Sequence record: PQ249395
Strand: one strand, 5' to 3'
Origin: Escherichia phage Pu-Krd-SF1
DNA: 64,000 nucleotides
The notes beneath the pieces were generated by a model that saw nothing but the letters and a program-made list of their open reading frames with translations, had not been told where the DNA came from and did no database searches. Positions within the stretch are counted from its first letter, which is position 1; every line of letters begins with the position of its first letter. Positions 22,221-26,195 of the stretch are shown in pieces. The position numbers and the translations under genes were made by a program.

Positions 22221-23111
22221 ATGTCAGTAGTAATTAATAATGTCAATGCAGTAATTAAATCATTAGTTAATAAAAAAATGATGAATGAATGGACTGTACT
22301 TCGCCGTGGAGAGCCAGATAAATTTTTTCATAGATTTAACCCAACTTTGGATTTGAATGTTATCGACAAAGATGTTCATGCAGAAATTTTAGATAAGTTT
22401 AAAGTTGATATTGGATTTGGATTAGAAAAACATCTACAGCGAACAAACGGGTCTGGAATGAGTTTATCTAATCGTATCATGAAAGCCCTTAATAAAATTG
22501 GAGCGTTGTCTCGCATTAATGCGAGTGAAATCCTTCGTAATTATAATAAAGGATATGACCTTTATGGTCGACTAATGCCAAAATTATCATTCGATCAAAT
22601 GATTGCGGATTTGTGGAAAAATCAACGACGATTATTAGCATTAGGCGCTCGATTAGCTAAAGGTCTAGATAAACAAATGATTTTTAAGACCAATAATACA
22701 GAAGACCTTAAATGCTTTAAATTTAGTATTCGCGGAGATGATTATTACATCAGAGCTTGCTCTACAGATTATGTTAATATGGGACATCATCTCTGTTTAG
22801 CTTTTGAAGTTTTAAAAGAAGCTGGAACATTAGAATATACGTCTGGTGCTAAATGCCCGATTGGTTCAAATTGCATTTTGATTTATCGCCCGAATGAATC
22901 CAGTTCAACTACATTGCCTACAAAACCTGTACCAGTTCGTAGTAACGAAAAACATTCTGAACAAATTGATTATTTTAATAAGCAGATTGAAGAGCTGAAT
23001 ATTTCTATTCAACAGTATGATGATGAAATTTTCAGACTATCTGGATTGAGTAGTAAAGCTAAATCTGAGCGTGAAAAGTTAATTAAAATCGTTGATTTAC
23101 TTAAATCTTAA
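22221..23111 (+). CDS. hypothetical protein, paralog family member 1 (C-terminal coiled coil)
   Basis: SD gaggaaaatATG; internal motif RRLLALGARLAKG. Confidence 0.55.
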   Translation: MSVVINNVNAVIKSLVNKKMMNEWTVLRRGEPDKFFHRFNPTLDLNVIDKDVHAEILDKFKVDIGFGLEKHLQRTNGSGMSLSNRIMKALNKIGALSRINASEILRNYNKGYDLYGRLMPKLSFDQMIADLWKNQRRLLALGARLAKGLDKQMIFKTNNTEDLKCFKFSIRGDDYYIRACSTDYVNMGHHLCLAFEVLKEAGTLEYTSGAKCPIGSNCILIYRPNESSSTTLPTKPVPVRSNEKHSEQIDYFNKQIEELNISIQQYDDEIFRLSGLSSKAKSEREKLIKIVDLLKS

Positions 23112-23119
23112 GGAATACC

Positions 23120-24154
23120 ATGAAAACTCGTTCTCAAATTGAAGATATGGTTCGTAACGCTAGCGATACTCGTGATGTTATGACATTTTTGTGTGAAAAT
23201 AATTTAGACCTTGATAAAATTAATCGTGCTATTCATCACTTTAAATATCTGAATAGCAGCGAATGGGTGCGTAATTTTAGTAAAGCAGGGTATATTACGC
23301 AAATGACTGCTCGTGAACAGCTCACCGATTTCTGTAAAACTATTGATTATAAAAATCCTCTATTTGTTCAAGGCGTTGGTCAAAGTAAGGTCGATTTATC
23401 ATCTGGATTTTTCAATCCAAATCATTATCGTATTGAATGGAGATTTATTGCTCTGATCCGTAGACAATTAAAGCAAATTTTGTCGACGGCTAGTCGATTA
23501 AAAGGTTCTGACATTAACTTAAAGAACCTGAAATTTGATGGTTATACTCTTCAGATGGAAGTAAGACCATTAAAAGAAAATAACAGAACTGCACGAATTA
23601 GCTTTAAACCTAATACAAAAAATTCTCTTTCAATTTGCGAATGCCTTAAATCGCAGTTGACAGAAGCATTTAAGTATATGGATGTTGTTGCCGCTGTTCA
23701 GTCTAAGATTTCACAACATTTCGAACGATTTAAATTAGACACAACAACATATGAACTTGATATGATCGTTTCATTTAAATATGAATTTTTGAGAAAGGAC
23801 GAAGTCCCGCAAGAAAAAAAGCAAGAAGTGCAAGATAACTTAAATTTAAATTTAAATTTATCCAATTACTTATCAAACGATCCTAAATTTTGGATGTATA
23901 GTTCAGGTAATAAGGATGCATGGAAATTCAATAAAGTGAATTTTCTTCCTGATGAAAATCCGAGTCTTAAACCTGTTGAAAAATGGCATGCAGATGCGAT
24001 TGAAAAGTCTATCAAGGCAGTAGATGATGAACTCGTTAAAGCAACTAATGAAGTGTTAGAAGCTGAAAAGATGCTAGAAAAAGCTCAAGAAAAAGTCAAA
24101 AATCTCACGAAGCAACGTTCTAAACTGAACAATGCACTAAATGCACTGAACTAG
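23120..24154 (+). CDS. hypothetical protein, paralog family member 2
   Basis: 344 aa; motif RRQLKQILSTASRLKG; C-terminal coiled coil. Confidence 0.55.
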   Translation: MKTRSQIEDMVRNASDTRDVMTFLCENNLDLDKINRAIHHFKYLNSSEWVRNFSKAGYITQMTAREQLTDFCKTIDYKNPLFVQGVGQSKVDLSSGFFNPNHYRIEWRFIALIRRQLKQILSTASRLKGSDINLKNLKFDGYTLQMEVRPLKENNRTARISFKPNTKNSLSICECLKSQLTEAFKYMDVVAAVQSKISQHFERFKLDTTTYELDMIVSFKYEFLRKDEVPQEKKQEVQDNLNLNLNLSNYLSNDPKFWMYSSGNKDAWKFNKVNFLPDENPSLKPVEKWHADAIEKSIKAVDDELVKATNEVLEAEKMLEKAQEKVKNLTKQRSKLNNALNALN

Positions 24155-24184
24155 TTTACTTTACCACAGGGATGTGGTATAATG
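24154..24184 (+). promoter_or_regulatory. T4-type early promoter
   Basis: GTTTAC and GTGGTATAAT. Confidence 0.55.
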
Positions 24185-24211
24185 TTCTTATTTTCTACTG
24201 AGGAGATTAAT

Positions 24212-25213
24212 ATGACTCGTAACGAATATATCAAATCATTCAATAGCGTTATTGATGATAAAGCTATACCGATGTTTGGCCAAAATAGCGTTCTTTCTAT
24301 TATCAATCAATGGCTCAATAGTGTTGATGCAGGTATTGTTTCTTCTACTAAATTTATTCATGAAATTCGTAAAATTTCTAGTCGTGTAGATAAAGATGTT
24401 ATCAAGAAAACCTTTAAAGAGTCTCGTCTTCTTTCATATTTGGTTAATCGGGATATTCTTGGTAATTTTGGGAAAGAAATTAAACGAACCAAAGATGTAG
24501 TAGGATATAATTGGTTCGGTGATGTTAATACTTATCATCTTAATACTAAAGAAGACCCTGAGAATATTTTTACTCGTCGTTGGGTTAGTGAATTTAGGAG
24601 TTTTACGAAGCAAATTCTAAAATCAGCTTCTAAATTATGTTATGGCGATTATCGTCAAATTCATCCCTTAGCTGATGATATGATTATAGCAGAAGAATAT
24701 GAGCTTGATAAAAACAAAGTAGCTATTTTTATTAATTACAGATTTTTTACACCAGAAACTAACCAAAGGAATATTAATAAATTTTTCTCAATTGCTAGCA
24801 CTATAACTCGTCAATTAGAAACCGCATTACTTTGTATGGAAACAGTAGAAAATATTCATACGTATCCTTTTAAGAATATATGCGGTTGGGAAGGATACAA
24901 AATTGTAGTTAGTCTTCGTGAAGTGAAATGTGCTTATTCACCGACTGATAAAGAAATTTACCAACAAAAATGTGATGAAATTGTGAATATTCCTAAAGAA
25001 GAAACTACACTTGAGGAACTAATGGATAATCTTGATGATTCGCCTGAACCGGTAGAAATTCGTCCAGAAGTTATTGCACTAGAAAAAGCTTATAAAGAAG
25101 TTCTAGAAATTTCTAATAAAGCGCAGAAAGAATATGAGAAGGCTAAAAGGATTTGGGAAGAATCTGTTAATCGCCTTGATCGTCTTGAACAAGCTTTACA
25201 GTTAATTAAGTAA
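24212..25213 (+). CDS. hypothetical protein, paralog family member 3
   Basis: SD gaggagattaatATG; motif FTKQILKSASKL; C-terminal coiled coil. Confidence 0.55.
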   Translation: MTRNEYIKSFNSVIDDKAIPMFGQNSVLSIINQWLNSVDAGIVSSTKFIHEIRKISSRVDKDVIKKTFKESRLLSYLVNRDILGNFGKEIKRTKDVVGYNWFGDVNTYHLNTKEDPENIFTRRWVSEFRSFTKQILKSASKLCYGDYRQIHPLADDMIIAEEYELDKNKVAIFINYRFFTPETNQRNINKFFSIASTITRQLETALLCMETVENIHTYPFKNICGWEGYKIVVSLREVKCAYSPTDKEIYQQKCDEIVNIPKEETTLEELMDNLDDSPEPVEIRPEVIALEKAYKEVLEISNKAQKEYEKAKRIWEESVNRLDRLEQALQLIK

Positions 25214-25265
25214 TTTAAAGCCAAGGATGGCTCGGAGTATAAATCATTAACCAAGTGAGAAGAAC

Positions 25266-26195
25266 ATGAAAACTCGTAAACATTATATTGATTATTTTGA
25301 CAGTCTTATTACTAAACATCGTAATTATCAGATCGGGCACAGAGCAGTAATCAATAATATTCTTCGTGATTTCCTTCAATATGTTGGCCAGGAAAATCAT
25401 ATCTGTAAAGATACTCAAAACGCTTATTCTCATTCGTTAGGCAATTTGCTTCAATGGTTTAAACGTTCTCGTCTGTTATCTTCTACTGTAGCTAGCGATA
25501 ACATTAAAAACTTTATGAAGCCGAGCTTCATTAAATCTGCGACATCTATAACCGATTTGGTTGAATTTACTATTGTTAACGATGTTAAAAAGACCCATTT
25601 GGCTGATTGGTTATCTACCATTCCTGAAACTAAATTTGCTGATAAATTCGCTTGTCAATTCAATAACCAAGTGAATATGCTTTTTAAGCATGCTCGCAAA
25701 CTATTTACCGCGGGTGATGACCGTACAAATACAGTTCATGTTAAGGATTGGGTTATTGCTGATGAAGTAACACACAAGCCGGGTGGTTCATCAGTATTAA
25801 TTAATATCCAGGTTCCTTATTACTACTCACGTAATCTCGGCACCATGACAGCTAGAGAAATTAATAAGCATAACAAAACTGTTCGTTCGTTGTCTTATAA
25901 ACTCTGCACGATGGTGGAGATGATGGACGTAGTGGAAATGTATGATGAAACCGAAGATAATGGTTCAATGTTATACAGTTCACGTATTCTAATTAAACTG
26001 AAGAATCCTAATACATATAAGCCAGTTGTAAAAGAACCTAAAATAGAAAAAGTTGATAACTTGAGCGAAGAACGTGAATATCTCAATGCTCGTTTGATTG
26101 AAGTTGAAGCCCAGATTGCCGAACACACCAAATTGTTAAAAGCTCTTAATGCAAAAGCAAATGGTTTACGTAATGCTATTGAGGTATTGAAATGA
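25266..26195 (+). CDS. hypothetical protein, paralog family member 4
   Basis: 309 aa; N-terminus MKTRK like member 2 (MKTRS); C-terminal coiled coil. Confidence 0.55.
   Translation: MKTRKHYIDYFDSLITKHRNYQIGHRAVINNILRDFLQYVGQENHICKDTQNAYSHSLGNLLQWFKRSRLLSSTVASDNIKNFMKPSFIKSATSITDLVEFTIVNDVKKTHLADWLSTIPETKFADKFACQFNNQVNMLFKHARKLFTAGDDRTNTVHVKDWVIADEVTHKPGGSSVLINIQVPYYYSRNLGTMTAREINKHNKTVRSLSYKLCTMVEMMDVVEMYDETEDNGSMLYSSRILIKLKNPNTYKPVVKEPKIEKVDNLSEEREYLNARLIEVEAQIAEHTKLLKALNAKANGLRNAIEVLK

Follow-up and report, generated by a model that had tools for sequence, protein, structure and literature searches.

The nrdC.6-nrdC.5-nrdC.4-nrdC.3 block of Escherichia phage Pu-Krd-SF1 is probably an old tandem array of four paralogs that belong to one superfamily of early anti-defence proteins. 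It lies between positions 22221 and 26195 of a 64,000-nucleotide stretch of Tequatrovirus (T4-like phage) DNA (sequence record PQ249395; the whole stretch is referred to below as the window) and comprises four open reading frames (ORFs) on the + strand, here called A (22221..23111, 296 amino acids (aa)), B (23120..24154, 344 aa), C (24212..25213, 333 aa) and D (25266..26195, 309 aa), which are orthologs of T4 nrdC.6, nrdC.5, nrdC.4 and nrdC.3, respectively. An initial annotation had described them as four diverged paralogs with one architecture; its coordinates, lengths and start codons agree with ours, and a purine-rich ribosome-binding sequence lies directly upstream of each ORF. In current databases the array is split among three Pfam/PHROG families and four pVOGs. 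Joining these into a single superfamily appears to be new, as no paper stating a relationship between the NrdC.3 to NrdC.6 families was found in open-access text.

Orthologs and database families

The array lies on one strand between nrdC.7 and nrdC.2, within the early block extending from nrdC.10 as far as gene 49. The 4.4-kb stretch containing it is 100% identical to Escherichia phages Pu-Krd-SF3, SF4 and SF6, and shows 95-96% identity to many Tequatrovirus genomes. B, which is flanked by the orthologs of nrdC.6 and nrdC.4 and thus holds the same position as T4 nrdC.5, is 93% identical to NrdC.5 over 344 aa; it belongs to phrog_2351 and matches DUF7235 (PF23882) with 406.7 bits against a gathering cut-off of 30, covering the full model. 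A, C and D gave no match to PF23882 in a Pfam search (local copy). They share the architecture of NrdC.5 as remote homologs that lie outside its Pfam and PHROG family, and are themselves direct members of two further families, both uncharacterised. The first of these (NrdC.6; PF26899, phrog_2257) includes A, which is 98% identical to T4 NrdC.6 over residues 1-259 and matches phrog_2257 at E 1e-150; its homologs, down to 43% identity, are labelled PF26899 (precomputed Pfam labels, the local Pfam copy being one without this entry). The second (NrdC.3/NrdC.4; PF26897, phrog_1435) includes both C and D, which match phrog_1435 at E 3e-166 and E 2e-115, respectively, and whose retrieved homologs are all labelled PF26897. 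C is 93% identical to T4 NrdC.4, while D represents an allele class only 61% identical to T4 NrdC.3 and is 95-98% identical to its counterparts at three other Tequatrovirus loci. These three families, unrelated in the databases, form one superfamily in our analysis.

Evidence for common ancestry

C and D are the only pair among the four proteins with a significant pairwise BLAST match (E 2.5e-9, 26% identity over 226 residues), and their relationship is equally clear by hhalign (P 1e-14). Clean profiles restricted to Tequatrovirus sequences aligned B with merged C/D at P 2.3e-4 and A with C/D at P 0.011, in both cases full-length and collinear. We then enriched each profile with clear cross-genus relatives from eight further Straboviridae genera, taken from the region downstream of the conserved nrdC.10 (profiles B+, CD+ and A+). 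B+ and CD+ aligned over 299 columns at P 7.8e-12 (97.5% probability), or at P 5.4e-9 without the hybrid-looking protein P0262, and the globular parts of B and CD alone, with the C-terminal helix removed, aligned at P 1.2e-7. A+ matched CD+ at P 3.7e-4 (9.7e-3 without P0262) and B+ at P 3.1e-3. Reversed-profile controls gave P 0.02-0.5, and the minimum among about 40 unrelated ORFs of 200-400 aa from the same loci, compared with the three profiles, was P 0.036. Cross-family comparisons of the window proteins reached P <= 5.2e-3 in five of eight cases.

Several proteins of other phages bridge the families. P0262 matches CD at P 2.7e-13 and B at 2.9e-6, a 326-aa protein of phage Mineola matches B at 2.3e-7 and CD at 1.6e-5, and a 292-aa protein of Yersinia phage fHe-Yen9-01 matches all three profiles (A 1.1e-4, B 7e-4, CD 2.7e-5) in collinear fashion. 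The pairwise and profile alignments suggested in the initial annotation therefore join C to D by BLAST and B to C/D by profiles, with a weaker link for A. We consider the homology of B, C and D virtually certain and that of A with the other three very likely.

The AlphaFold2 models of C (predicted local distance difference test score (pLDDT) 84.9, predicted template modelling score (pTM) 0.69) and A (pLDDT 79.5, pTM 0.66) contain the same elements in the same order: an N-terminal helical bundle, a short beta segment (weak in A), a helix-helix-short helix unit, a beta-hairpin, a long helix, a second beta-hairpin, a low-confidence linker and a long C-terminal helix. In Foldseek searches against predicted viral structures, C gave 17 matches and A gave 10 at E < 1e-3, all of them uncharacterised Straboviridae proteins of 150-380 aa. 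Five distant targets, matched near full-length, are common to both (A0A0A0PZG4, A0A7G3KGN9, A0A345AUV5, E5E4A2 and A0A1V0DXL6), and belong to Pectobacterium phage PM2, Enterobacter phage IME523, Acinetobacter phages fHyAci03 and Acj61 (E5E4A2) and Yersinia phage fHe-Yen9-01. The initial annotation proposed structure prediction as a way to seek a common fold, and such a fold is suggested for two of the proteins by the element order of their models and by their five shared neighbours; B and D probably have the same build, judging from their alignment.

The internal motif that the initial annotation had listed for all four proteins proved real and lies at equivalent positions. In A it is RRLLALGARLAKG (22626..22664, + strand; residues 136-148), which is near-invariant across the A family and lies in helix H135-145 and the following turn; in C it is FTKQILKSASKL (24602..24637, +; residues 131-142), in helix H132-142. 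The corresponding sequences are RRQLKQILSTASRLKG in B (23459..23506, +; residues 114-129), aligned to the C/D motif by hhalign, and MLFKHARKLFTAG in D (25677..25715, +; residues 138-150). The motif-bearing units of the two models, H124-133/H135-145/H148-151 in A and H119-130/H132-142/H145-148 in C, are the same helix-helix-short helix unit with the same lengths. Two additional motifs, absent from the earlier list, were found in the profile alignments: an SRLLS-type motif shared by all four (A 96-108, B 56-71, C 71-86, D 68-83) and an L..A...MD.VE-type motif in B (180-193), C (202-215) and D (213-226). B and D both start with MKTR, as had been noted; C starts with MTR, followed by the same pattern as after the MKTR of B and D.

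A heptad-rich C-terminus of about 50 aa, also described previously, is present in all four proteins. The last 49 residues of A (22962..23108), B (24005..24151), C (25064..25210; helix 285-332 in the model) and D (26046..26192), all on the + strand, each form a single unbroken heptad register in which 86-93% of the a/d positions are hydrophobic compared to 17-29% of the others (shuffle p <= 0.002). N-terminal control segments of the four proteins showed no heptad difference from shuffles, and among internal control segments only that of B reached p = 0.013. The similarity of the tails is likewise borne out, since the motif L-x-x-[AIVL]-[LIVM]-x-[LIVMA]-[LIVM]-[KNRQ] forms the exact C-terminus of A, B, C and D (e.g. 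KLIKIVDLLKS in A, KLNNALNALN in B, RLEQALQLIK in C). This terminal motif, with a background rate of about 5e-4 per position, ends 11 of the 130 ORFs of at least 150 aa at ten loci, and all 11 are array members; a looser form ends the Serratia, Klebsiella, Yersinia and Acinetobacter relatives.

The same helix is affected in the T4 reference sequence (NC_000866), where nrdC.6 encodes 275 aa. Positions ~10008-10189 of that sequence correspond to window 22960-23111 and lack one nucleotide that the window has (GCTGAATATT against GCTGA-TATT); this 1-nt deletion causes a frameshift and the loss of the conserved C-terminal helix. The last 37 codons are nonetheless retained in another frame at 97% identity, and the T4 annotation of another laboratory gives nrdC.6 as 891 bp (296 aa). 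Because the helix codons persist and the longer gene is annotated elsewhere, the reference may carry either a strain-specific mutation or a sequencing error.

It is improbable that only B, C and D are paralogs, with A (nrdC.6) an unrelated protein whose similar length and coiled-coil tail arose by convergence. This explanation draws on the weak homology of A at the sequence level (P 3.7e-4 to 1e-2 against CD, 3e-3 against B), on two single-sequence tests in which A was non-significant (P 0.27 and 0.36), and on an exhaustive HMMER search of 1.84 billion representatives with the C/D profile, which retrieved 11 proteins and none of the A family. That search missed the B family too, however; a single-profile sequence search cannot join the families. 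A further difficulty for convergence is that helices and strands follow one another in the same order from end to end, that five distant Foldseek neighbours are common to A and C, that the terminal motif sits at the exact C-terminus of A, and that A is adjacent to the others in the same array. In addition, the 292-aa fHe-Yen9-01 protein matches A, B and CD collinearly, and the weak alignments are all collinear, which the reversed controls are not. The weak P values of A and its two non-significant tests do count against a four-member superfamily, as does the fact that its homology leans on predicted structures, available for A and C, which were compared through element order and shared database neighbours.

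Copy number, divergence and recombination

The array site carries genes of types A, B, C and D in Tequatrovirus, types A, B and D in Mosigvirus and types A, B and C in Dhakavirus. There is one B/CD-like gene each in Winklervirus and Jiaodavirus, one or two relatives in Tegunavirus and two in Acinetobacter phage Acj61, and no array gene was present at this site in the Aeromonas and Vibrio phages examined. The copy number therefore ranges from 1 to 4 at one syntenic site across several Straboviridae genera, and more distant relatives of the fold occur in Klebsiella, Serratia, Yersinia and Acinetobacter phages. Since relatives of the A-D types are already found at the same site in Mosigvirus and Dhakavirus, the duplications must be old, and a recent origin is not supported.

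The array genes have nonetheless evolved faster than their neighbours. Ratios of non-synonymous to synonymous substitution rates (dN/dS), calculated from seven Tequatrovirus sequences, were 0.10 for A, 0.19 for B, 0.21 for C and 0.28 for D, compared to 0.00-0.09 for the flanking nrdC.10, nrdC.9, nrdC.8, nrdC.1, nrdC and gp49, which are mostly 97-100% identical. (A scan of viral contigs with C yielded five close loci, which were used for the divergence and dN/dS estimates only.) The initial annotation had proposed copy number and dN/dS as checks; variation in copy number and faster evolution of the array are both evident, but gene-wide positive selection is not shown, all values being below 0.3. 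Nor is the divergence specific to the N-terminus, as had been suggested. Differences are distributed evenly, with a maximum in the alpha/beta core, where C and D show 20% identity as against 30% in the N-terminal bundle. Every family varies most in its core or linker and least in its motif helices.

Among Tequatroviruses D falls into two allele classes, which are 95-98% or ~61% identical to the window. The two alleles lie within flanks that are mostly 97-100% identical, suggesting that D has been replaced by recombination; the adjacent nrdC.2 (window 26192-26503) is also unusually variable (66-91%), a pattern suggestive of cassette-like replacement.

Rearranged members of the family were also encountered. 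P0056 is a natural 299-aa chimera of NrdC.5 residues 146-276 and NrdC.3 residues 134-309, which amounts to a deletion in which the end of nrdC.5, the whole of nrdC.4 and the start of nrdC.3 were lost. A first hhalign link between B and D (P 2e-7, at non-collinear positions) was spurious, arising because this fusion sat in the B alignment, and was gone once P0056 had been removed. P0057, the 378-aa NrdC.6 of Shigella phage Sf25, contains an internal tandem duplication of ~82 residues, which takes in the latter half of the alpha/beta core along with the beginning of the C-terminal helix. In T2, nrdC.4 is split into two pieces, and nrdC.4 fragments of 155-158 aa are annotated in T2 and vB_EcoM_G8 (BFVD A0A2Z5WKJ2, A0A482N302); the gene seems to be decaying in some lineages.

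Proposed anti-defence role and genomic context

A T4 deletion mutant no longer plates on ECOR17, or on MG1655 carrying dsr1 from ECOR17, and expression of nrdC.5 alone restores its plating on dsr1-carrying cells (Srikant et al., eLife 2022, PMC9391042). By analogy with its T4 ortholog, B should have the same anti-Dsr1 activity. Because the paralog nrdC.5 disarms Dsr1, A, C and D are good candidates for inhibitors of other defences, and an anti-defence role is the most likely one for them. The host-interaction family suggested in the initial annotation is thus supported by the published phenotype, by evolution faster than that of the neighbouring genes and by the two D alleles.

We propose that each paralog is made early (as an early or middle gene) and would be dispensable on laboratory hosts. 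B would act against Dsr1, a SIR2-type NADase defence, as the T4 ortholog (93% identical) does, and A, C and D would neutralise other host defence proteins, presumably by binding them directly. The fast-changing alpha/beta core may determine target specificity, with the conserved motif helices and C-terminal coiled coil providing a common scaffold or serving in oligomerisation. The closest functional analogue for such direct binding is DSAD1, likewise an accessory protein of a phage that counters a defence of the SIR2-domain NADase type, in this case by inhibiting DSR2 through binding of its sensor region. DSAD1 differs in its host, its phage group and its target (DSR2 senses the tail tube), and binding is only proposed for NrdC.5. 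Comparison of the A, B and C/D profiles with all PDB chain sequences revealed no sequence relationship to DSAD1, nothing being found at E <= 1 beyond chance, although inclusion of the DSAD1 structures in the searched copy was unconfirmed.

The genetic setting agrees with this proposal. T4 NrdC.5 and A-D are all encoded by early, non-essential accessory genes. According to a transposon study (bioRxiv 10.1101/2025.11.20.689424), the non-essential genes of T4 include nrdC.3 to nrdC.6, and those of Bas37 include the positional counterparts, bas37_0198 to 0201. The same study reports T4 nrdC.1 as a Septu inhibitor and bas37_0203 as a Druantia III inhibitor. The window contains orthologs of both on the + strand. 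That of nrdC.1 (26496..26738, 80 aa) is 97.5% identical to the T4 gene. That of nrdC.8 (21223..21750, 175 aa) is 98% identical to T4 nrdC.8 and is the counterpart of bas37_0203. We considered bas37_0203 as a possible member of the array and rejected this; gene size, gene order and the screening primer (at window 20981-21001) identify it as an nrdC.8 ortholog, hence a neighbour rather than a paralog, and nrdC.8 orthologs gave no convincing match to the family profiles. With anti-defence roles reported for nrdC.5, nrdC.1 and nrdC.8, the entire block from nrdC.1 to nrdC.8 resembles an anti-defence island with the array inside it. Like other such islands of T-even phages (dmd-tifA-adfA, and here nrdC.1 and nrdC.8), it groups early accessory genes of small to medium size, each with a reported action against a different defence, variable among relatives and lost without cost on laboratory hosts. 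It differs in that the four array genes are mutually paralogous, which is undescribed for the other named islands.

Some of the available data tell against an anti-defence family. The experimental support concerns the ortholog of B, from which 7% of residues differ in the B of this phage, and the binding of NrdC.5 to Dsr1 is an inference, the published phenotype coming without a mechanism; a search of open-access text for a later paper on how NrdC.5 acts against Dsr1 found none. The dN/dS values, well below 1, indicate mainly purifying selection. In one contrast table for T4 from the transposon study, nrdC.3 to nrdC.6 are not depleted (q = 1), and none of them is among the genes followed up in that study. 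Searches of PADLOC (no match at E <= 1 for any of A-D), NCBIfam and PDB sequences returned nothing for these families, and neither these nor the local Pfam copy gave a functional clue.

It is also possible, if unlikely, that the family is real but its members are not defence inhibitors. As host-takeover or regulatory factors, all four would instead be docked by the motif helices and the C-terminal helix onto a single partner of host or phage origin. The effect of NrdC.5 on Dsr1 would then be indirect, for instance because the capsid protein sensed by Dsr1 is exposed late or masked. Such a route is conceivable given the report that the major capsid protein is what the Dsr1 sensor recognises (PMC12803255), and the motif helices and terminal motif, being the most conserved parts and common to all paralogs, are what a shared partner would lead one to expect. 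However, ectopic nrdC.5 alone rescued the mutant on cells that carried only dsr1, neighbouring genes are reported as specific defence inhibitors, and the array genes are non-essential, undergo allelic replacement and vary in copy number, which is typical of genes in an arms race and not of core takeover functions.

A different role for NrdC.3-6, which we think very doubtful, would be that of early-made virion-protein mimics. As oligomers with a tail-terminator-like alpha/beta core on a coiled-coil stalk, copying the tail-terminator/tail-completion fold, they might act as decoys, occupying the pattern-recognition sensors of the host ahead of the real structural proteins. One paralog per sensor would hypothetically pre-occupy the trigger-binding pockets (e.g. 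those of the tetratricopeptide repeat (TPR) sensors of Dsr1 and Avs proteins), forming a modular decoy toolkit against structure-sensing immunity; we would give this extension as little credence as the mimicry itself. Homology to tail terminators was kept as a weak lead only, its score being too low to claim it; Dsr1 is reported to sense the capsid protein. A-D have no sequence similarity to tail-terminator and tail-completion proteins (the lambda gpU fold) and, unlike these, are early, non-essential and encoded outside the structural module, with extra N-terminal and coiled-coil parts. The array proteins were not found to combine the convincing fold match with the tail-module location or role that would place them among gpU-like proteins.

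We favour the reading of the array as an early anti-defence family. T4 is the best-studied lytic phage, yet nrdC.3, nrdC.4 and nrdC.6 have had no function assigned to them, and nrdC.5 has had a phenotype but no mechanism. If the four form one family, the anti-Dsr1 activity would provide a testable hypothesis for the three orphan genes, and equally for related genes in Klebsiella, Serratia, Yersinia and Acinetobacter phages. The variable core could be distinguished from the conserved parts (motif helices and coiled coil), guiding work on Dsr1 inhibition, and a paralog array that varies in copy number and undergoes allelic replacement would clearly exemplify a counter-defence family diversifying by duplication, with some bearing on the prediction of host range for therapeutic T4-like phages. 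No established concept is changed, as T-even phages were already known to have anti-defence islands; all four array genes have known T4 counterparts, B is a member of a characterised anti-defence family, and the result is useful but incremental.

Regulatory sequences were noted in and around the array. A consensus scan identified a candidate T4 early promoter between B and C (24153..24183, +; GTTTAC, 14 nt, GTGGTATAAT), and a T4-type early promoter is annotated at this site in phage SA20RB (96% identical), whose annotation also places early and middle promoters upstream of nrdC.8 and nrdC.7. The interval between C and D contains, at 25221-25244, a short sequence able to form a hairpin (CCAAGGATGGCTCGG); the TATAAAT after it resembles the core of a T4 late promoter (TATAAATA).

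In Klebsiella phage Mineola (L010 12227-13045), Serratia phage X20 (L012 12190-12993) and Yersinia phage fHe-Yen9-01 (L013 12630-13421), the same block encodes a different conserved protein of 263-272 aa with the C-terminus ...FFKRPS..., directly upstream of an array member in the first two and ~1.5 kb upstream in the third. Such upstream proteins (257-272 aa) were considered as A-like members and rejected, showing no profile match to the NrdC.3-6 superfamily (P >= 0.04). In the window, the mechanically called 378-aa ORF at 19622-20758 has a strong terminator-like hairpin (19676-19695), followed by a T run, near its 5' end, and the true start of nrdC.10 is probably the ATG at 19790 (MKTVTINKG...). 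The AAA-like protein encoded by nrdC.10 is conserved from Tequatrovirus to Vibrio and jumbo phages at 37-100% identity.

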